Source: Thermodesulfobacteriota bacterium
Lineage (GTDB): Bacteria > Desulfobacterota > Desulfobulbia > Desulfobulbales > SURF-16
DNA length: 38,870 bases
NCBI GenBank assembly: GCA_039715015.1
Contig: JBDLIE010000026.1
Location: 1-38,870, forward strand
Direction of reading: 5' to 3'
The notes beneath the pieces were generated by a model. The model was not told the DNA's origin, made no database searches, and worked only from the letters and a program-made list of their open reading frames with translations. The position numbers were made by a program, and so were the translations under genes. Shown one piece after another: positions 18,205 through 26,890 of the stretch (position 1 is its first letter; each line of letters opens with the position of its first letter).

Positions 18205-21003
18205 TTAGCGCTCGCTGTCCAGCATCTCGCGCAAGGCCTTTGCAAGGGTGTTAAAGGCCACCGGTTTCAGGAGAAATTTACGGATGCCAATCGCCTTGGC
18301 CCTTTCCTCGTTGGTACTCTCACTGTGACCGGTACAGAGGATAATCGGAATATCCGGCCGTATCTCCAACATTTCTTTGGCAAGATCAGTGCCATTTTTT
18401 TCCGGCATGGTCATGTCGGTGAGGACCAGGTCAAATGCGTTTGGATTTTCTTTGAATATTTTAAGCGCATTCAAGCTGCTGCTGGTGGTGGTGACTTGGT
18501 AACCAAGGTCATCCAATAAGAGTTTATGGATAGTGATAATGAGCTCTTCATCATCGACAAGCAGGAGCCGTTCACTCTTCCCCGGCAGAGCTTCCTCAAT
18601 GACTGGCTGCTCGTAATGGGCCTTCCCTTCCTGGACAGGCAGGTAGACGTGGAAGGTGGTGCCCTGCCCAGGCTCGCTGGTAACCGTGATCTCGCCTTGA
18701 CACTGTTTGATAATGCCACGAGCTACGGAGAGGCCCAGGCCGGTGCCTTGGCCCTTTTCCTTGGTGGTGAAAAATGGGTCGAATATTTTTGACAGGGTTA
18801 CCTGGTCCATACCGCAGCCAGTGTCACTGATTGCGAGATCAAGATAGGTGCCCGGTTCAAGAAGAGGCCGGTCGGCCATGCTTTCTGGGCTGGTGATTTC
18901 GATTTCTGAGAGGCCAACACTCAAGCTGCCAATTTCGTTGCCAATGGCATGTTTGGCATTGGTGCAGAGGTTCATGATAACCTGATGGATTTGGGTGGGA
19001 TCAGCGAGACATATGCCGCAGTTTGGAGCAATATTTTTCTTGATAGTTATGGTTGACGGCAGAGATGCCCGTAAAAGTTTTAGAATCTCATTGACGAGCA
19101 GGTCAATATTGACGAGGCGATAATCCTCGTCGGTCTGGCGGCTGAAGGCAAGAATCTGCTTTATAAGTTCAGCGGCCCTGTTGCCGGCGCTAATCACCTG
19201 GCTAAGATATATCCGCACCGGGTCATCGGCCGTCAAATGTGTTTGGGCGAATTGTCCATAGCCGATAATAGAGGTGAGGATATTGTTAAAATCATGAGCA
19301 ATACCGCCAGCCAGGATGCCGATGGCTTCCATTTTCATGGCCTGCCGTAATTGGCTTTGAAGCTGAACCTCTTTGCTGACATCAGACTTTACAGCCACAA
19401 AGTTGGTGATCTCGCCTTGATGATTTTTGACAGGAGAGACAGTGACATTTTCTTCAAACAGGGAACCATCTTTTTTTCTGTTCGTCATATGACAGCGCCA
19501 CACCTTGCCCTGGGTCAGGGTGCTCCACATTTTTTCATAAAATTGTGAGTCCTGATTGTCACTTTTTAGAAAACAGATTTTTTGACCAAGGGCTTCAGCG
19601 ATGGTGTAACCACTTGCCTTTTCAAAGGCTGGGTTGGCGTATTGGATGACTCCATTAGTGTCGTGGATAAGCACTGTTTCAGCGGCTTGATCAATGGCAG
19701 TGGCGAGCAAAACTCTGTCCGCCTCCAGTTTTTTGAAAGATGTTATATCTTTGGCAACATGGACAATTTGGATTAATTCACCTTCATCGTTAAGAACCGG
19801 TGAAGATGAAACCTGGAATGTTTTGTCAAATTTTTCCTGATAAATTTCGTTGGTATGGGGGGTGCGTTTTTTTATCGTTTTGTCGATTGGGCAGTCAGGG
19901 CAAGGAACATGTGAGTCAGCATAGATTTCATGGCAGTGGCGGCCCAGGATCTCTTGCTCTGTGAGGCCCACTGCCTCACAGCCGGCCTTGTTAATCTTGT
20001 CAATGCGATACTCGGGATCAAGAATCGTCACAATGTCGCTAAAAGAGTTGAATGTTCTCTGCCACTGCTCCTCGCTTTTACGCAGATCCTCCTCTATTTT
20101 CTTACGAGCCGTGATGTCCAATACCGAAAATATCACACTCTCAGGAAAATCTTGAAGAGCCACCTTGCTGGCGCTGAGATGGACGTCAATCACTGAGCCG
20201 TCTTTACGGCGCCACTTGGTGTCCATGGAGCCGGTGCCATATTTCTCCAGCGAACCGTAAATCTGGTGGCCCGCCTCCTCAAAGTTTTCATCATCGGCAT
20301 AAAGAAGGCTGGCCTTTTTGTCCTGAAGTTCTTGCAAAGAGTAACCAGTTATCTCGGCAAATTTCTCATTTGCCCAGTAGAGTCTTCGCTCAACCGCCAG
20401 GTGGTTGATTCCGGTGGGGGTGGATCTGAAAATACTTTGCAGGAGCGATTCTTTTTTTTCAGCCTCCTGGTGGCTTTGCAGATTGCTCAGGCCGGTTTGG
20501 GCAAAGAGGGTAACGTTTTTTGCCAGATAGCGTAGCATGGCATGAAATTTTTCCTCACTGCTGACTGGGACTTGGGCAAGGGCGCGCAGGTATTTCTGTT
20601 CATCAAAGCCGTATTTTTGGGCCTGGAGGCGGAAATGCTCTTTGTCGGCTGGGGCCAAAAGGACCTGTCCGGTGAACAGTGTTGCCAGATGGTGTCCTTC
20701 AATGATGATGGGAGTAAAGCCGTAAATAAGGCCGTTTGGACAATGGCGAATGAGGATTTGGTTGGCCTGATTGACTCCGGCCAAATCTGGCTTATTATGG
20801 ACCAGACACTGGTTTTTCGTCTCAGGATATGTATGATGGAATTCTGTACAAATATCACGCCAGCCCGTGTGAACAATGAACTCACCTGTTTTCGGGTCAA
20901 CGAGGCCGGCGGTAAAGTCTGTGGCCGTCGAAAAATCTTCGAAGAGGAGCCTAAGCTCTTTAAGGTCAATGATGTTTTGAATATTAACAGAATCAACGTG
21001 CAT
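18205..21003 (-). CDS. Cytoplasmic hybrid histidine kinase: PocR - 3xPAS - HisKA - HATPase - REC
   Basis: PocR pattern (FSTATD...WRDICTEFH...CPNGL...PIIIEGHHLATLFTGQ), PAS repeats, AGGIAHDFNNIL, NLCTNA, DTGCGM, FFTTK..GTGLGL, receiver LVDDE/TDMTMP/KP. Confidence 0.93.
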   Translation of the reverse strand: MHVDSVNIQNIIDLKELRLLFEDFSTATDFTAGLVDPKTGEFIVHTGWRDICTEFHHTYPETKNQCLVHNKPDLAGVNQANQILIRHCPNGLIYGFTPIIIEGHHLATLFTGQVLLAPADKEHFRLQAQKYGFDEQKYLRALAQVPVSSEEKFHAMLRYLAKNVTLFAQTGLSNLQSHQEAEKKESLLQSIFRSTPTGINHLAVERRLYWANEKFAEITGYSLQELQDKKASLLYADDENFEEAGHQIYGSLEKYGTGSMDTKWRRKDGSVIDVHLSASKVALQDFPESVIFSVLDITARKKIEEDLRKSEEQWQRTFNSFSDIVTILDPEYRIDKINKAGCEAVGLTEQEILGRHCHEIYADSHVPCPDCPIDKTIKKRTPHTNEIYQEKFDKTFQVSSSPVLNDEGELIQIVHVAKDITSFKKLEADRVLLATAIDQAAETVLIHDTNGVIQYANPAFEKASGYTIAEALGQKICFLKSDNQDSQFYEKMWSTLTQGKVWRCHMTNRKKDGSLFEENVTVSPVKNHQGEITNFVAVKSDVSKEVQLQSQLRQAMKMEAIGILAGGIAHDFNNILTSIIGYGQFAQTHLTADDPVRIYLSQVISAGNRAAELIKQILAFSRQTDEDYRLVNIDLLVNEILKLLRASLPSTITIKKNIAPNCGICLADPTQIHQVIMNLCTNAKHAIGNEIGSLSVGLSEIEITSPESMADRPLLEPGTYLDLAISDTGCGMDQVTLSKIFDPFFTTKEKGQGTGLGLSVARGIIKQCQGEITVTSEPGQGTTFHVYLPVQEGKAHYEQPVIEEALPGKSERLLLVDDEELIITIHKLLLDDLGYQVTTTSSSLNALKIFKENPNAFDLVLTDMTMPEKNGTDLAKEMLEIRPDIPIILCTGHSESTNEERAKAIGIRKFLLKPVAFNTLAKALREMLDSER

Positions 21004-21174
21004 TGTCTTGGGGTCCCTAAAAATGAAATTGCCTTACCCTATATGTGCTAAGACGCTCTGCCTCTACTTGCAGCTTTGTGTAACTAACATGTTCAGTATT
21101 TTTTTGCATCCGCTGGCTATGATTATAGCAGAGGGGCGCAGACCAGAGCAAAAAGAGGAAATTATAGACCTGCC

Positions 21175-21900
21175 ATGCCCATAAATCTTATTGTCTCCCT
21201 TATTTTTTTTAGCGCCGGTCTCCTTCAGGGCATTTCCGGCTTTGGAGCAGCATTGCTGGCTATGCCCCTTCTTGTCCTGGTGCTGGAGGTAAGAGAGGCG
21301 GTAACCCTCACACTCTTAAATACGTTGACTATCAATCTCTTTTTATCACTGCAGCTGAAAAGCCATCTTGATTGGCGCAAGATCTTGCCGTTGGCTGTCG
21401 GCTGTGTGCCGGGGGTTTATGTGGGGGTGACCATTCTTAAAAACGTTAATTCTGCTATGATTAAATGCAGTCTGGGTACTTTGATCATAGCTTACGGTCT
21501 CTCCTGTCTTTATGGGCGGCTAAGCCAGAAGTCGATCAACAAAGGCTGGGCCTATGCGGCTGGTTTTGCAACCGGCACCATTGGCGGCGCTTTTAGTGCC
21601 GGCGGTCCCCCCACTATCATCTATACCACCCTTACCGGCTGGAAGAAGGATGAGATTAAAGCGACGTTATCGTCCTTTTTTTTCTTTACATCTGCCCTGG
21701 CGGCGTCGGCCCATTATCTCACCGGCCTAATGACCCACCATGTTTTGACCCTCTTTGGGGTCGCAGCCTTGCCGGTACTTTCCGGGGTCTTCTTTGGTTC
21801 ACGTTTGTATAAAAAATTACAGAGCAACTCCTATCTGACAATCATCTATTATCTCCTCATTGTCCTGGGAAGTATGATGGTCGTCTCAGCTCTTAAGTGA
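21175..21900 (+). CDS. Sulfite exporter TauE/SafE family membrane protein
   Basis: GLLQGISGFGAALLAMP and internal repeat GTIGGAFSAGGPP; about 8 TM segments. Confidence 0.88.
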   Translation: MPINLIVSLIFFSAGLLQGISGFGAALLAMPLLVLVLEVREAVTLTLLNTLTINLFLSLQLKSHLDWRKILPLAVGCVPGVYVGVTILKNVNSAMIKCSLGTLIIAYGLSCLYGRLSQKSINKGWAYAAGFATGTIGGAFSAGGPPTIIYTTLTGWKKDEIKATLSSFFFFTSALAASAHYLTGLMTHHVLTLFGVAALPVLSGVFFGSRLYKKLQSNSYLTIIYYLLIVLGSMMVVSALK

Positions 21901-21907
21901 TTGGATT

Positions 21908-22240
21908 ATGTTTTTTTCTGGGCGCATGGCATGGGAAGCCAAGACTATAGAGGCCATGATCCGTCTCTATTGCCGGCGGCACCATGGGGGGGGCAGGGAG
22001 CTTTGCTCAGAGTGCCGGGAGTTGGAGGAGTATGCCCAAAAACGTCTGGCACTCTGTCCTTTTCAGGAGGGCAAGACCACCTGCGGCAACTGTCCGGTTC
22101 ATTGTTATAAGCCGGAGATGAGAAAAAGAGTTCGGACGGTGATGCGGGAGATAGGGCCGAAGATGATTTTTTATCACCCCATCATGGCATTAAGGCATTT
22201 GCTTGATGGTTTGCGGAAGACGCCTAAGAAGAAAAAATGA
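21908..22240 (+). CDS. YgbA-family ('nitrous oxide-stimulated promoter') Cys-rich protein
   Basis: E.KTI..MIRLYC..HH, LCSEC..L..YA..RL..CPF...K.TC..CPVHCYKPEMR, GPKMIFYHP..A..H. Confidence 0.88.
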   Translation: MFFSGRMAWEAKTIEAMIRLYCRRHHGGGRELCSECRELEEYAQKRLALCPFQEGKTTCGNCPVHCYKPEMRKRVRTVMREIGPKMIFYHPIMALRHLLDGLRKTPKKKK

Positions 22241-22314
22241 AGACCAACTGCACGATGTAGAGCAGGGAATTTTGAATTCCGAATGCAAAAAAAGAGGATG
22301 TTTTTGATCAGTCT

Positions 22315-22815
22315 TTACAGGTGCGCAACCCTGCGTGCCTGCCAATAATGCTTCAGCCAATGGGGATTGTCCAGGCGTGAGATCATCACCCCTTTGCTCT
22401 TTGAGGCATGGATGAATTTCTGGTTCTCCACATAGATAGCCACGTGTCTGGTTCCCATATTGACCTTGAAGAAAACAAGATCTCCTGGTTGGAGTTGGAC
22501 CTTGCTGACCGCCTCACCGGTATGGGCCAGCTGCGAGGTGGTGCGGGGCAGCCGGACATCGAAGAGCTCACGGAAGGAGCGATGGATAAAGCCGGAACAG
22601 TCAACGCCTTTTTTGCTCATGCCACCGTCGCTATGGGGCACGCCTTGCCAGTCTTTAAGTTGGCAGTAGAGCTTGTTAATGGTTTTATAGTGCTCTTCCT
22701 GGCTGAAATGGTAGCTGTTTGCCGGAGGGCTCTGGACAGTTTTTTTAGGGTCAGAACAGCTGCTCAGCATGAAAACAGCGCAGATAACAGCTATAAATCG
22801 GAGTGTACGTTTTAT
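22315..22815 (-). CDS. NlpC/P60 family cell-wall peptidase lipoprotein (start codon atypical)
   Basis: WQGVP, GVDCSGF (catalytic Cys), LPRTT, PGDLVFF, HVAIY, FIHAS. An in-frame lipoprotein signal (IKRTLRFIAVICAVFMLSS-C) lies upstream of ATG 22770. Confidence 0.88.
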   Translation of the reverse strand: MKRTLRFIAVICAVFMLSSCSDPKKTVQSPPANSYHFSQEEHYKTINKLYCQLKDWQGVPHSDGGMSKKGVDCSGFIHRSFRELFDVRLPRTTSQLAHTGEAVSKVQLQPGDLVFFKVNMGTRHVAIYVENQKFIHASKSKGVMISRLDNPHWLKHYWQARRVAHL

Positions 22816-25178
22816 TTTTTTTCACATTTTTCAGCGCCGCAGGCCTCGCAGACGCCATGGCTGAGACACCAGGCCGGCCCGGTGGCTGTGTCTGTAATGA
22901 TGATTCCTTTTTCCTCTAATTTAAGGCGGGCAGCATCAGCCTTTTGCCAATCTTTACTTTTTCTCGCCTCTTCCCGCTCTTTGATCAATTCGTCAATTTC
23001 AGGATTCAGGGGACATGCCTCCAGAACCATGACGTTTATAATGGAGTTGATCTTTTCCAGGGGCTCCAGGATATATTTTTTCTGGTCGCCATCAAGTTGA
23101 CCGCTGGCCAGAATGGGATTGACCTTTTTGATGAAATCAAAGAGAGCGCCCAAGGCCTTGGAGATATTCATGTCATCATCCATGGCCTCAAAAAAGGTGT
23201 TTTCAAGGCTGGTAAGATAGGTGGCCACCTCGGGATGGGGATTACCCGGTGACAGGCAAAGGAGTTTTTTGCAGAATTCATCAAGGCGGCGCAGACTGGT
23301 GCGTGCTGCCGTGAGCTTGCTATAGCTGAATTCGATGGGCTTGCGATAATGATGACGCAGCAGGAAGAAGCGCACCTCCCTGTTGCTGAAACCCTCTGCC
23401 CAGACATCATTAAGGGTAATGATGTTGGAATTTTCAGCGCTCATCATTTTGCCATCCACCAAAAGGAGTTCGGAGTGGAGCCAGTGGTTGGCCAGGGGCT
23501 TGCCGGTCAGGGCCTGGGCAATGGCATTCTCATTTTCATGGTGAGGGAAGATGAGGTTGCGGCTCGCCGTGTGGATGTCCATGGTGTCGCCGAGATGGCT
23601 CAAGGTCATGGCCGCACATTCGATATGCCAGCCAGGCCGCATATTGCCGAAATCGGTCTGGAAAAAGATGCCCTGCTTGAGTTCGCCCAGGGTGGAGCGT
23701 TTCATCAACGTGAAATCAAGGGGGCTGTGCTTGTCATACTCCTCAAGGTCCACGGACTGGCCGCTTCTGATTTTATCGAGATCCACCTTGGAGAGTTTGC
23801 CGTAATCGCTGAATTTGGAGATGTCGAAATAGATGGACCCGTGCAACTCATAGGCAAAGCCCTTGTGGATAAGATCATGGGAGATCTCGATCATCCGCTC
23901 AACATAGGCCGAGGCCTTGGGCATGGTGATGGGCTGTTTCATGCCCAGGGCTTCCATGTCGGAAATAAAGGCCTCGATATGGGGGGTGGTGAAATCCGCC
24001 ACTGACTGTGATTTATTCTCGGCCCCGGCAATGGTGTTATCGTCAAGGTCGGTAAAGTTCATCAGAAAGTCGACCTTATAGCCCTTGGCGGCCAAGGTGC
24101 GATGGATCAGGTCGGCGACGATGAAACGCCTGCAGTGGCTGAGGTTAGTAGCTTCGTGGGCTGTGGGGCCGCAGGCGTAAAAGGTTACCTTTTTTGAAGA
24201 AATGGGCGTGAAGGGCAGTTTCTTTCGTTTAAGGGCATTGTAGAAGCGCAGCTGCGAAGCCTCATCCGCATCACCCTTGGTTGTTTTTTTGGTAAAGAGC
24301 TCAGTGGAGAGATATCTTTCCCCGCTGTCAGGGAAGATGACAATAAGCACGCCCTCTTCCATCTCTTCCGCCCTTTTAAGTGCCGCAGTCATGGCACAGC
24401 CGGAACTCATGCCCACAAAAAGACCCTCTTCCCTGGCCAGGGTGCGGGCCATTTCAAAGGACTCTTCATCCTCAATATTAATGATCTGGTATGGTTTATT
24501 TTTATCGAAGATCCCAGGCTTATAGGACTCTTTCATGTTTTTGAGGCCTTGGATTTTGTGCCCAAGGTAAGGTTCCACCGCAGTAATGCGAACATGGGAA
24601 TGCTTGGTGGCATAATAATGACTGAGGCCCATGACCGTACCACTGGTACCCAAGGTGGCAACAATATCGGTAACCTTGCCGCCGGTCTGTTCCCATATTT
24701 CGGGGCCGGTGGTCTCGACATGGGTCTGCCAGTTGGCATTATTGTTGAACTGGTCGGTGAGGAAATATTTGTCCGGATGTTCCCGGACCATGGCGTAGGC
24801 CTGCTCAATGGCGCCATCGGTGGAACGTTTAGCAGGGGTAAGAAGTATCTCAGCGCCGTAAGCACTCATGATTTTGCGGCGCTCAATGGAGGCGGATTCA
24901 GACATGACCAGCATGCAGCGGTAGCCCTTTACGGCACAGACCATGGCCAGGCCAATACCAGTGTTGCCGCTTGTGGCCTCAAGAACGATCTTGTCCTTGG
25001 TCAGCGCTCCGGACTTCTCGGCTGCCTCGATCATGAATTTGCCGATCCGGTCCTTGACTGAGCCACCAGGGTTCATGGACTCAAGTTTGGCAAAAATCTG
25101 GACCTTGGGGTTCTTGTTTAAACGGCGGATGGGAACGATGGGAGTGTTGCCGACAAGATCAAGGATGGATGCGTTCAT
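22812..25178 (-). CDS. Fusion: cysteine synthase (CysK/CysM family) + degenerate cysteinyl-tRNA-synthetase-like domain
   Basis: N-terminal ~300 aa: NPGGSVKDR (PLP Lys), ATSGNTGIG, GTSGT, HKIQGL, PDSGERYLS. C-terminal ~480 aa: CGPT, RPGWHIEC, FPHHENE, HYR, DDDMN, ARKSKDWQKADAAR. One continuous ORF. Confidence 0.93.
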   Translation of the reverse strand: MNASILDLVGNTPIVPIRRLNKNPKVQIFAKLESMNPGGSVKDRIGKFMIEAAEKSGALTKDKIVLEATSGNTGIGLAMVCAVKGYRCMLVMSESASIERRKIMSAYGAEILLTPAKRSTDGAIEQAYAMVREHPDKYFLTDQFNNNANWQTHVETTGPEIWEQTGGKVTDIVATLGTSGTVMGLSHYYATKHSHVRITAVEPYLGHKIQGLKNMKESYKPGIFDKNKPYQIINIEDEESFEMARTLAREEGLFVGMSSGCAMTAALKRAEEMEEGVLIVIFPDSGERYLSTELFTKKTTKGDADEASQLRFYNALKRKKLPFTPISSKKVTFYACGPTAHEATNLSHCRRFIVADLIHRTLAAKGYKVDFLMNFTDLDDNTIAGAENKSQSVADFTTPHIEAFISDMEALGMKQPITMPKASAYVERMIEISHDLIHKGFAYELHGSIYFDISKFSDYGKLSKVDLDKIRSGQSVDLEEYDKHSPLDFTLMKRSTLGELKQGIFFQTDFGNMRPGWHIECAAMTLSHLGDTMDIHTASRNLIFPHHENENAIAQALTGKPLANHWLHSELLLVDGKMMSAENSNIITLNDVWAEGFSNREVRFFLLRHHYRKPIEFSYSKLTAARTSLRRLDEFCKKLLCLSPGNPHPEVATYLTSLENTFFEAMDDDMNISKALGALFDFIKKVNPILASGQLDGDQKKYILEPLEKINSIINVMVLEACPLNPEIDELIKEREEARKSKDWQKADAARLKLEEKGIIITDTATGPAWCLSHGVCEACGAEKCEKK

Positions 25179-25395
25179 AAAAATAACTGTAGATGTGAGT
25201 AAATGAGTAGACGCCAGGCTGATGGTCAGACTGGCAAGCTGCTGCGGTTAAAGGAATCCACCCAAAAGATACGGGCAGAAAAAAACTGCCTAGCACACTC
25301 TTAAAACGGAACATCTAAAACAGCAAATAAAAAGTGGGATATTGGACGTTTGGGCCTAGGCTGCGTCCGAATTTGCTAAGAACGATCCAAAAGCG

Positions 25396-25545
25396 CTAGG
25401 CAAAGGCGCCATCCCAGTCACTATTTTCTTTCATAAATTGCTCCATGGCCCCACCTATTTTTTTATCCTCGTTACGGATATGGTTGATAAGCCACTCAGT
25501 AAGGAAATCAATAAGTCCATAGGGGTGAATGGGCTTCCCCTCCAT
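25396..25545 (-). CDS. 49-aa ORF resembling the C-terminal helix of bacteriohemerythrin (mini-protein or remnant)
   Basis: FLTEWLINHIRNEDKK matches the hemerythrin W-L-x-x-H-I-x-x-x-D motif; AAGGAG RBS 8 nt before ATG 25545. Confidence 0.55.
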   Translation of the reverse strand: MEGKPIHPYGLIDFLTEWLINHIRNEDKKIGGAMEQFMKENSDWDGAFA

Positions 25546-25609
25546 AAAATAATCTCCTTGGCGGCTTGATGTCACTGAGGATTCATGATGAGTATAGTAC
25601 ATGATAAAT

Positions 25610-25649
25610 AAAAAAGGCAGGCTCCTCAAAAGAGGAACCTGCCTTTTTT
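25610..25649 (-). terminator. Intrinsic terminator of the dsrTMKJOP operon
   Basis: aaaaaaggcaggctcctc-aaaa-gaggaacctgcctttttt hairpin with A and T tracts, 50 nt after the dsrP stop. Confidence 0.85.
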
Positions 25650-25699
25650 ATTATACGACCTGAATGATCTGGAGTTTAAGGATATAAAATCCTGGCGCT

Positions 25700-26890
25700 C
25701 TAGGAGATCTTCAGGGTTGCTTCAGAGTCGCGCTTTACAGCAACAACCATCTTGTAGAGCAGGGTGAGAATGAAGAAGCCTGTGGACCAGACTCCGGCAG
25801 TCACGGTGAGTTCTACAACGGTGGGGGTGTACTCTACAACATGCTCCATGGGCGTGGGTACGAAACCACCAAGGACAAGGCCCAGGCCTTTATCGATCCA
25901 GAAAGCAACGAAAATCAAGATACAGCTGGTGGCCAGCATGGCATCTGATTTCTGGCGTCTGGAAATAAAGAGCATGCAGATGCCAAGAATACCCATGGCA
26001 ACAGAGGCGCGCATAAAGGGCACCAGGTTGTTGTGCATAACCCCTGTGCTGTGGTCAACAAGACCAAAGAACAGGTAATCCAGGGTGTGCATATGGCCGG
26101 GGATGTTGGAGTAGTAGCCAACAAAGACCTCACAACCGAGGAGGAAGAAGTTAATGATAGCAGCGTAACCGATGATGGTCACCAGCTTGTTTTTGGCAGT
26201 CTCACCCACGTCAAAATTAGCAGTACGCTTCATGATCAGCGCAATAACCATCAGCAGGGCCGGTCCGGCCGCAAAGGCCGAGGCCAGAAAGCGGGGAGCC
26301 AGAACAGCGGTGAGCCAGAAATGACGTCCCGGCAGACCACAGTAAAGAAACGCCGTTACGGTGTGGATGGAGATGGCCCAGGGAATGGAGATATAGATAA
26401 ACGGCTTCACCCAGTTGGGATACTTGACGCCTCTATATTCAGACGAGAGGACCACGAAACCACACAGTACGTTTAAGAACAGGTAGCCGTTTAAGACGAT
26501 CATGTCATAAAACAGCATGGAGTTCGGGGTAGGGTGAAGGATAACGTTCATTGCCCGCATGGGCTGACCAAGATCGGCAATAATGAACATCAGACACATG
26601 GCCACGGCAGCAATCGCCATGAACTCACCCAAAAGAGTAATACGACCAAAAGACTTGTAGTCATGCAGGTAATATGGAAGCACCAGCATCAGACCACCGG
26701 CGGCAACACCGACCAGGAAGGTAAACTGGGAGATATAGATACCCCAGGTCACGTCCCGGCTCATACCGGTGGCGCCAAGTCCGTAGTTGAACTGGACCAG
26801 ATAGGCAACAGCGCCTGCGCCCATAACCATGAGCAACAGGGTGAGCCAGCCCCAGTACAGTCCGTTTCCTTTCAATACTTTATCAACCAT
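25700..26890 (-). CDS. dsrP: DsrP, NrfD/PsrC-family membrane subunit
   Basis: GMSRDVTWGIYISQFTFLVGVAAG, WAISIHTVTAFL, APRFLASAFAAGPA, WIDKGLG; last gene of the operon. Confidence 0.95.
   Translation of the reverse strand: MVDKVLKGNGLYWGWLTLLLMVMGAGAVAYLVQFNYGLGATGMSRDVTWGIYISQFTFLVGVAAGGLMLVLPYYLHDYKSFGRITLLGEFMAIAAVAMCLMFIIADLGQPMRAMNVILHPTPNSMLFYDMIVLNGYLFLNVLCGFVVLSSEYRGVKYPNWVKPFIYISIPWAISIHTVTAFLYCGLPGRHFWLTAVLAPRFLASAFAAGPALLMVIALIMKRTANFDVGETAKNKLVTIIGYAAIINFFLLGCEVFVGYYSNIPGHMHTLDYLFFGLVDHSTGVMHNNLVPFMRASVAMGILGICMLFISRRQKSDAMLATSCILIFVAFWIDKGLGLVLGGFVPTPMEHVVEYTPTVVELTVTAGVWSTGFFILTLLYKMVVAVKRDSEATLKIS

Follow-up and report, generated by a model that had tools for sequence, protein, structure and literature searches.

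A cysteine synthase fused to a CysRS-derived module with altered ATP motifs: a probable link between cysteine synthesis and tRNA-Cys in Desulfobulbales

Analysis of a 38,870-nucleotide stretch of DNA from a Thermodesulfobacteriota bacterium of the order Desulfobulbales (assembly GCA_039715015.1, contig JBDLIE010000026.1; hereafter the window) revealed a minus-strand gene that encodes a pyridoxal phosphate (PLP)-dependent cysteine synthase followed by a module derived from cysteinyl-tRNA synthetase (CysRS). The fusion probably couples cysteine synthesis to tRNA-Cys and is probably not itself a charging enzyme. We assign a probability of roughly 0.55 to the reading that a CysM-type synthase has been joined to a CysRS-derived pseudo-synthetase that performs no adenylation, binds tRNA-Cys and couples synthase output to it. 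The ATP-binding motifs of the module were replaced, the residues that contact the anticodon were retained in every lineage compared, and a canonical cysS gene was present elsewhere in the same genome.

Domain anatomy and motif state of the fusion

The gene and its features, all on the minus strand, were assigned as follows.

22812..25178: whole gene, CysM-like synthase/CysRS-like fusion, 788 residues, stop codon at 22812-22814 (open reading frame list, Pfam and NCBIfam matches, 120 full-length homologues)
24330..25163: PLP domain of the CysK/CysM family, residues 6-283 (PALP, PF00291, 240.9 bits)
25053-25055: PLP lysine K42, within SVKDR
Residues 69-74: carboxylate-binding loop TSGNTG of the PLP domain
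24258..24293: linker of about 12 residues, 296-307 (predicted local distance difference test score, pLDDT, below 50 in the AF2 model)
23304..24212: CysRS-like Rossmann/connective peptide (CP) core, residues 323-625 (tRNA-synt_1e, PF01406, 293.8 bits)
24171-24173, 23616-23618, 23541-23543 and 23529-23531: retained Zn ligands C336, C521, H546 and E550, respectively
24135-24146 (NLSH) and 23433-23447 (MMSAE): altered ATP motifs of the CysRS-like core, together with NTIA and TASRN
23049..23195: helical DALR-type domain (DALR_2), residues 662-710 (PF09190, 33.4 bits)
22881..23009: anticodon-binding domain (CysS_C), residues 724-766 (PF23493, 30.8 bits)
22926-22964: anticodon quartet R739, W744, D748 and R751, equivalent to E. 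coli R427, W432, D436 and R439 (offset 312 from the alignment to 1li5)
22824..22868: clade-specific Cys-rich tail WCx5Cx2Cx4C, residues 771-785 (homologue tails; low pLDDT)

The initial annotation had described this frame as a synthase-CysRS fusion with an intact PLP enzyme, and both parts of that description were borne out by the open reading frame list and the Pfam domains, with SVKDR (K42) and TSGNTG in place. The N-terminal half scored 358.2 bits against the NCBIfam cysKM subfamily model TIGR01136 (cut-off 344.15) and fell under the cut-offs of the two NCBIfam equivalog models, TIGR01138 for CysM (337.5 against 394.2) and TIGR01139 for CysK (322.5 against 350.95). Behind the synthase lies a C-terminal module of 480 residues, and fusion residues 310-770 scored 399 bits against the NCBIfam cysS model TIGR00435 (cut-off 340). 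An AlphaFold (AF2) model built from 59 sequences was confident within domains, with a mean pLDDT of 85.2. The best structural fit of its N-terminal half was CysM 2bhs_A (template modelling, TM, score 0.94); the model also matched chain 1u0b_B of the E. coli CysRS-tRNA complex (E 3.3e-38) and 8qhp_A (TM 0.91), and the C-terminal fold is predicted to be that of a complete CysRS.

To compare motifs, the fusion was aligned by HMMER to E. coli CysRS (1li5). CHIGHGR of the E. coli enzyme corresponded to TNLSHCR, DDKIIKRA to DDNTIAGA, DIHGGGSD to DIHTASRN and KMSKSLGN to MMSAENSN. The HIGH signature was thus absent (NLSH), as was the second lysine of KMSKS (MMSAE). The annotation had proposed each of these four substitutions by comparison with the E. 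coli protein, and the alignment confirmed them all; its placing of NLSH and MMSAE was also right by arithmetic from the start of the frame. YVCG, GWHIEC and FPHHENE were unchanged. C336, C521, H546 and E550 aligned to the Zn ligands of E. coli CysRS, which we take to be Cys28, Cys209, His234 and Glu238, and all four anticodon residues were present. C28 and C209 are named for CysRS in passages of PMC5660078. According to passages of PMC13449415, Arg427, Trp432, Asp436 and Arg439 of E. coli CysRS were mutated to re-target the enzyme to another anticodon, and Arg427 touches G34. Akaike et al. (PMC5660078, in the passages on CARS) found the PLP-binding KIIK/KMSK lysines K73, K76, K266 and K269 to be required for persulfide synthesis. 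N381, A384, M578 and A581 stand at these positions in the fusion, so all four persulfide-linked lysines are gone, as the annotation had stated.

The closest active CysRS subtype reads HIGN, DDKTI and DIHTGG. Because this parent subtype normally carries them, the T of DIHT and that of NTI in the fusion represent no loss, and comparison with E. coli slightly overstates the damage to the module. The genuine departures from the parent subtype were H345N, G347S, K381N, G538A, G539S, D541N, K578M, K581A and S582E. Motif loss was systematic across 121 order-level fusions, a point that the annotation had left to be checked. When we considered the 73 positions conserved in at least 90% of 93 canonical CysRS sequences, 55 were kept in at least 90% of these fusions. 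The conserved positions that had changed lay in the ATP site (H345, G347, K381, G538, G539, D541, K578, K581 and S582) and in the CP domain and its vicinity (R475, W492, W506, G513, S522 and Q553). The first histidine of HIGH was kept in 15% of the order set and the second lysine of KMSKS in 2%; the final serine of KMSKS was never kept. Several replacements were themselves fixed, including an acidic residue for this last serine (E in 64%), and N at position 381 was found in 99% and I553 in 100%. C336, C521, H546, E550 and W517 beside the pocket were at least 98% conserved, and the anticodon quartet was kept in 121/121 sequences (W744 in 115, Y or F in 6). The family also acquired invariants of its own, among them R351 beside the HIGH helix and, within the CP domain, an insertion of the form KRSTLxELKxG.

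The Cys-rich tail was present in the 14 closest relatives (P0001-P0014, at least 74% identity) among the 30 homologue tails listed (P0001-P0030), and in some of these it was longer, with 6-7 cysteines. The other 16 tails did not carry it, save for a short CxxC in P0020. This tail may be a small metal-binding or sulfur-relay appendage.

Distribution, constraint and order of losses across the phylum

The fusion is not the essential cysS of the cell, and it is not its only cysteine synthase. The genome is 99.99% complete and carries a separate canonical cysS at the end of another contig (G000:C3:70-1035; 481 bits over the truncated frame), with HLGH, DDKIIK, DIHGGGKD and KMSKS. The possibility raised at the outset, that the fusion might be the only cysS, does not hold. 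A true cysK was also identified (398.6 bits, cut-off 350.95), though it is cut by a contig end, together with a serine acetyltransferase-like gene that scored under the cysE cut-off and a single tRNA-Cys of ordinary type (GCA anticodon, U73). No SepRS was found in this genome (best match 22.6 bits, cut-off 380.65). A tRNA-Sec (UCA) at G000:C84:6801-6898 indicates that the genome uses selenocysteine.

A protein search returned 120 full-length homologues with 66-91% identity, and those named by their source were labelled cysteine--tRNA ligase of Desulfurivibrionaceae, Desulfobulbaceae or Desulfobulbia. Within the order, 173 of 201 genomes had a best match at E <=1e-130, 27 had matches of single-domain grade only and one had none; all 150 matches listed for the order were near full length and came from 149 genomes. 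Across the phylum, 122/301 sampled genomes contained a match at E <=1e-120. Among 91 phylum genomes of at least 95% completeness, canonical cysS was present in 90 and the fusion was counted in 33, and each of these 33 also carried a higher-scoring standalone cysS. The source labels 'cysteine--tRNA ligase' and 'cysteinyl-tRNA synthetase' would be misleading: these cells probably do not use the protein as their ligase, and it is probably more than a simple synthase. The error would reach about 40% of the sampled genomes in a major sulfur-cycling phylum. In one genus of the order that has no fusion, a divergent standalone CysRS-like frame of 498 residues was observed (G005:C1:284633-285871; 269.6 bits, covering model positions 1-402 only), and it may belong to the CysRS* type that lacks the anticodon domain.

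Selection was examined within the genus from the ratio of nonsynonymous to synonymous substitution rates (dN/dS). Within the fusion the PLP domain gave 0.077, the CysRS-like core 0.083 and the anticodon domain 0.075, compared with 0.090 for canonical CysS of the same genomes; the linker (297-309) stood at 0.28 against 0.08 for the flanking domains. Because its dN/dS is about equal to that of canonical CysS, the CysRS-like part of the fusion is not decaying. The motif changes are held under purifying selection, which speaks against the strain-specific decay that the annotation had named as a possible refutation.

To determine which parts of the module persist beyond the order, we examined 75 further fusions from the phylum, one per genome, after removal of three duplicate loci; the identity figures for core, PLP and anticodon domains and the phylum counts for R351 and R540 come from the set that still included these duplicates. 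The PLP lysine, the SGNTG loop and an anticodon quartet of the form R/K-[WFY]-D-R/K were each present in 75/75. KMSKS was found in 0/75 and KMSRS in 17/75. The first histidine of HIGH was kept in 42/75, all four Zn ligands in 42/75 and both Zn cysteines in 58/75, the cysteines being lost in 17/75. The expectation that both the Zn and the anticodon sites are retained was upheld in this protein and in its order, but in the wider family the Zn pocket was repeatedly lost. On a FastTree topology, the minimum number of changes by parsimony was 19 for the KMSKS lysine position, 11 for the histidine of HIGH and 4 for the Zn cysteines. Following loss of the Zn cysteines, mean identity fell from 0.65 to 0.47 in the core but held steady in the PLP domain, at 0.69/0.70, and in the anticodon domain, at 0.48/0.50. 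The ATP site was lost first and often, and the cysteine pocket later, in some lineages. Since the Zn pocket was lost repeatedly and the anticodon reader never, tRNA-Cys binding, not cysteine binding, emerges as the common denominator, and the most economical explanation of these sequences is that tRNA-Cys binding would be the lasting job of the module.

Several individual loci deserve mention. In P0126 and in loci L117, L121-L123 and L126-L129 the ATP motifs had gone, as had all or most of the Zn ligands, with the PLP site and quartet intact. In one genus, a third CysRS-type gene with HLGN, DIH[ST]GGVD and KMAKS stands besides canonical cysS and the fusion (G298:C1:592800-595700, L061; G223:C85, L064); the G298:C1 and G223:C85 loci had been considered as fusions and were rejected as ordinary CysRS genes with long upstream open frames. 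An apparent two-gene 'split' fusion in G477 (L077, G477:C15:205900-209300) was likewise rejected, as it has a frame break inside the HIGH region instead, which could mark a pseudogene or an assembly error. The pairing of R540 with an acidic residue at 582, considered as a replacement for the lysine-phosphate contact, was common in the order and weakly associated outside it, and was not relied on.

We also searched 1.84 billion cluster representatives for distant fusions. P0123, a 768-residue cysteine synthase-CysRS fusion from a Nanoarchaeota metagenome-assembled genome, carried canonical HIGN, KTI, DIHTGG and KMSKS motifs; P0121 read HLGN and KMSRS; and P0126, a 775-residue 'cysteine synthase' of Desulfovibrio ferrophilus, had lost its ATP motifs and 3/4 Zn ligands. 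On a FastTree of the CysRS parts, used for topology only, the variant-motif forms made up one clade beside HIGN-type canonical enzymes. P0123 branched among canonical CysRS, which makes a separate origin of this fusion probable; it may also be truly bifunctional. Because the module derives from the HIGN/KTI/HTGG subtype, it did not arise by recent duplication of the resident cysS (HLGH/DDKII/DIHGGG).

Proposed role and alternative explanations

The annotation had suggested that the module gates or channels cysteine synthesis by binding cysteine and/or tRNA-Cys, an idea that the present results support in part. Under the proposed mechanism, the PLP half would act as an O-acetylserine (or O-phosphoserine) sulfhydrylase. 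The pseudo-synthetase would no longer activate cysteine with ATP and is not the charging enzyme of the cell, and its C-terminal domain would read the GCA anticodon of tRNA-Cys in all relatives. As the cysteine pocket is fully conserved in the lineage studied here, the module may also bind cysteine, or the cysteinyl end of Cys-tRNA-Cys, in its Zn-thiolate site. Binding of tRNA-Cys, here with cysteine, would gate the PLP site and so couple synthase output to the supply or charging state of tRNA-Cys, by a protein-level logic akin to that of the HisRS-like domain of GCN2 or of HisZ on HisG. A more specific proposal is tentative and in our judgement somewhat unlikely as stated: with the anticodon held by the C-terminal domain and the 3' end, free or cysteinylated, in the old active site with its Zn pocket, the module would sense whether tRNA-Cys is charged and switch the synthase on or off. 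If true, such a charging-state reader would do in protein form what a T-box riboswitch does, or what GCN2 does, with a metabolic enzyme of a bacterium as its direct target.

A number of observations weigh against the pseudo-synthetase reading. Loss of adenylation is read from motifs only, and no operon partner was conserved throughout the 21 loci compared. In the AF2 model the geometry between domains was not confident (predicted TM score 0.57), and neither a path between the two sites nor an allosteric contact can be demonstrated from it. A complex prediction for the PLP half with the CysRS-like half scored 0.49 against 0.37 for the control, and was counted neither way. The remaining points on this side all bear on the main rival, that the module is a rewired yet active ligase. 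The protein would then be bifunctional, an unusual but still-working CysRS that both makes cysteine and loads tRNA-Cys, with R351 and R540 in place of the lost residues. Relocated basic residues replace a lost lysine in some ArgRS enzymes, and R351 and R540 could do so here: both lie beside the old ATP site, R351 being found in 100% of the order set and in 77/78 phylum loci (three duplicate loci counted in) and R540 in at least 107/121 order sequences. Constraint on the core matches that on a working enzyme, the CysRS part scores above the curated cysS cut-off, and nothing is missing from the Zn pocket, the residues that contact cysteine or the anticodon reader. There is also P0123 with its fully canonical motifs, and the least-derived relatives, with HLGN and KMSRS, may still be active ligases. 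Against this, canonical cysS coexisted in all 33 fusion genomes counted, and H345, K381, K578, K581 and S582 were all changed in this protein, the last serine to an acidic residue. Related lineages have lost their Zn ligands entirely without losing the gene, which indicates that catalysis is dispensable for the family. Outside the order, R540 was weakly tied to loss of the lysine (8 versus 2 with the arginine, 39 versus 29 without it). We consider an active ligase unlikely, kept alive by the constraint on the core and by the two arginines.

Two further explanations appear doubtful, each more so than an active ligase. HisZ is an inactive synthetase paralogue that binds its amino acid, and by this precedent the module could be a sensor of cysteine only, through which cysteine feedback-inhibits the synthase while the tRNA-binding parts are idle leftovers. 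The near-complete conservation of C336, C521, H546, E550 and W517 in the order would fit such a sensor. However, all four Zn ligands were kept in little more than half of the phylum fusions and the Zn cysteines were lost in 17, compared with the quartet in all 75, and the anticodon domain had a dN/dS as low as any part. Alternatively, the module could be a structural or oligomerisation scaffold, or could bind an mRNA hairpin that mimics the anticodon and so autoregulate translation. Several synthetases regulate their own mRNA via tRNA mimics, and many lineages do without the catalytic residues. A scaffold alone, however, would have no need of the precise quartet seen in every fusion, and a scan of 22000-26000 against Rfam gave only sub-threshold matches on the terminator hairpin described below, with no T-box, riboswitch or other family or conserved structure in the leader of the gene.

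Least probable is tRNA-dependent chemistry, in which the pseudo-synthetase would present (aminoacyl-)tRNA-Cys to the PLP domain, which would act on the tRNA-bound residue, for example to give Cys- or persulfide-tRNA, or on a tRNA base: the PLP enzyme and the tRNA-Cys reader were never separated or lost in the 75 fusions, and SepCysS is a precedent for a PLP enzyme acting on aminoacyl-tRNA (PMC5688128; passages of PMC8762117), but this genome has no SepRS, the two sites are not confidently placed side by side in the model, and the TSGNTG loop is invariant. In CysK enzymes this loop clamps the free alpha-carboxylate of the substrate; its invariance therefore argues for a free amino-acid substrate.

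Genomic neighbourhood and comparison with known systems

A dsrT-like gene and dsrM, K, J, O and P lie directly upstream of the fusion on the same strand, which confirmed the gene order of the initial annotation. The functional tie to dsrTMKJOP that it had suggested was not upheld. A 522-nucleotide gap separates dsrP from the fusion gene, and it contains the following feature.

25610..25649, minus strand: GC-rich hairpin and U-run, just past the stop codon of dsrP, read by eye from the sequence and not listed by a consensus scan

This hairpin is likely to act as a terminator between the dsr operon and the fusion gene. The dsrTMKJOP genes were upstream of the fusion in 8/21 loci compared; a gene for 159 residues together with glnA/glnD/glnB/amtB-like genes (named by eye) was upstream in 9/21. 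The dsr neighbourhood is incidental. Between the terminator and the fusion, a 49-codon frame (25397-25545, minus strand) had no NCBIfam match and by eye resembled the C-terminal end of a hemerythrin-like protein. The fusion is followed by an NlpC/P60 lipoprotein gene (22315-22770) and, at 18205-22240, by genes for a PocR-PAS hybrid histidine kinase/response regulator (932 residues), a TauE/SafE sulfite-exporter-family protein and a YgbA_NO protein.

No description of a synthase-CysRS fusion was found in the open-access literature searched. A 2022 review of duplicated synthetases gives, in the passages on CysRS, CysRS* and MshC as the only paralogues (PMC9437257). The terms 'cysteine synthase' and 'CysRS-like' are absent from the main text of a review of cysteine-encoding systems (PMC8762117), and none of the passages with 'fusion' or 'fused' listed from it concerns a CysRS fusion. 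New here are the order in which losses occurred across the phylum, the count of genomes that carry both genes, the derivation from another CysRS subtype and the Cys-rich tail of one clade.

MshC, CysRS* of Desulfobacterales and CARS resemble the fusion in being CysRS-derived proteins with functions past ordinary charging (passages of PMC9437257 and PMC5660078). The fusion differs from MshC in its score against TIGR03447 (200.1 bits, cut-off 485.1) and from the CARS persulfide synthase in the absence of all four required lysines. CysRS* charges SelC*, has no anticodon-binding domain and is linked to SelC*/SelB* (passages of PMC9437257), whereas the fusion has an anticodon domain and neighbours dsr genes, NlpC/P60, YgbA and TauE, with no SelC*/SelB*. 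The SepRS/SepCysS pathway is set apart by the genome itself, in which no SepRS match reached the cut-off. Compared with CysM and CysK, the fusion shares the PLP lysine, the TSGNTG loop, a score above the cysKM cut-off and the best structural match, and differs in falling under both equivalog cut-offs, in its C-terminal module and in coexisting with a separate true cysK. With canonical CysS (EC 6.1.1.16; 1LI5/1U0B) it shares the order of Rossmann/CP core, helical domain and anticodon domain as well as the Zn and anticodon residues; it differs in the replaced HIGH, KIIK and KMSKS motifs, in the PLP synthase in front, in coexisting with a canonical cysS and in deriving from the HIGN/KTI/HTGG and not the resident HLGH/KII/HGGG form.

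The analogies for the proposed regulation are HisZ and GCN2. Like HisZ on HisG, the fusion would be an inactive synthetase paralogue joined to the enzyme that makes its cognate amino acid, with the pocket kept in its own lineage, and of the HisZ-type features it shows motif loss and physical linkage to the synthase; a HisZ-type subunit also transmits inhibition by that amino acid. Unlike the HisZ-HisG hetero-oligomer, its link is covalent, and its partner is the last and not the first enzyme of the pathway. HisZ has no anticodon-binding domain, whereas in the fusion this domain is the part that has lasted best. In GCN2, the HisRS-like domain has no charging activity, binds tRNA and controls the attached catalytic domain, as is proposed for the fusion; GCN2, however, is a kinase of eukaryotes and its HisRS-like domain does not single out one tRNA, whereas the partner here is a bacterial metabolic enzyme and the predicted reader is GCA-specific. 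If the proposal is true, a tRNA-specific pseudo-synthetase fused to an amino-acid enzyme would be a new bacterial way to match synthesis to tRNA status. A direct test is feasible, since in vitro production is possible for the protein as well as for tRNA-Cys. The family also offers a natural experiment, from members whose site looks active, through those with a dead ATP site, to those in which the Zn site is dead too, with the tRNA reader in place throughout.

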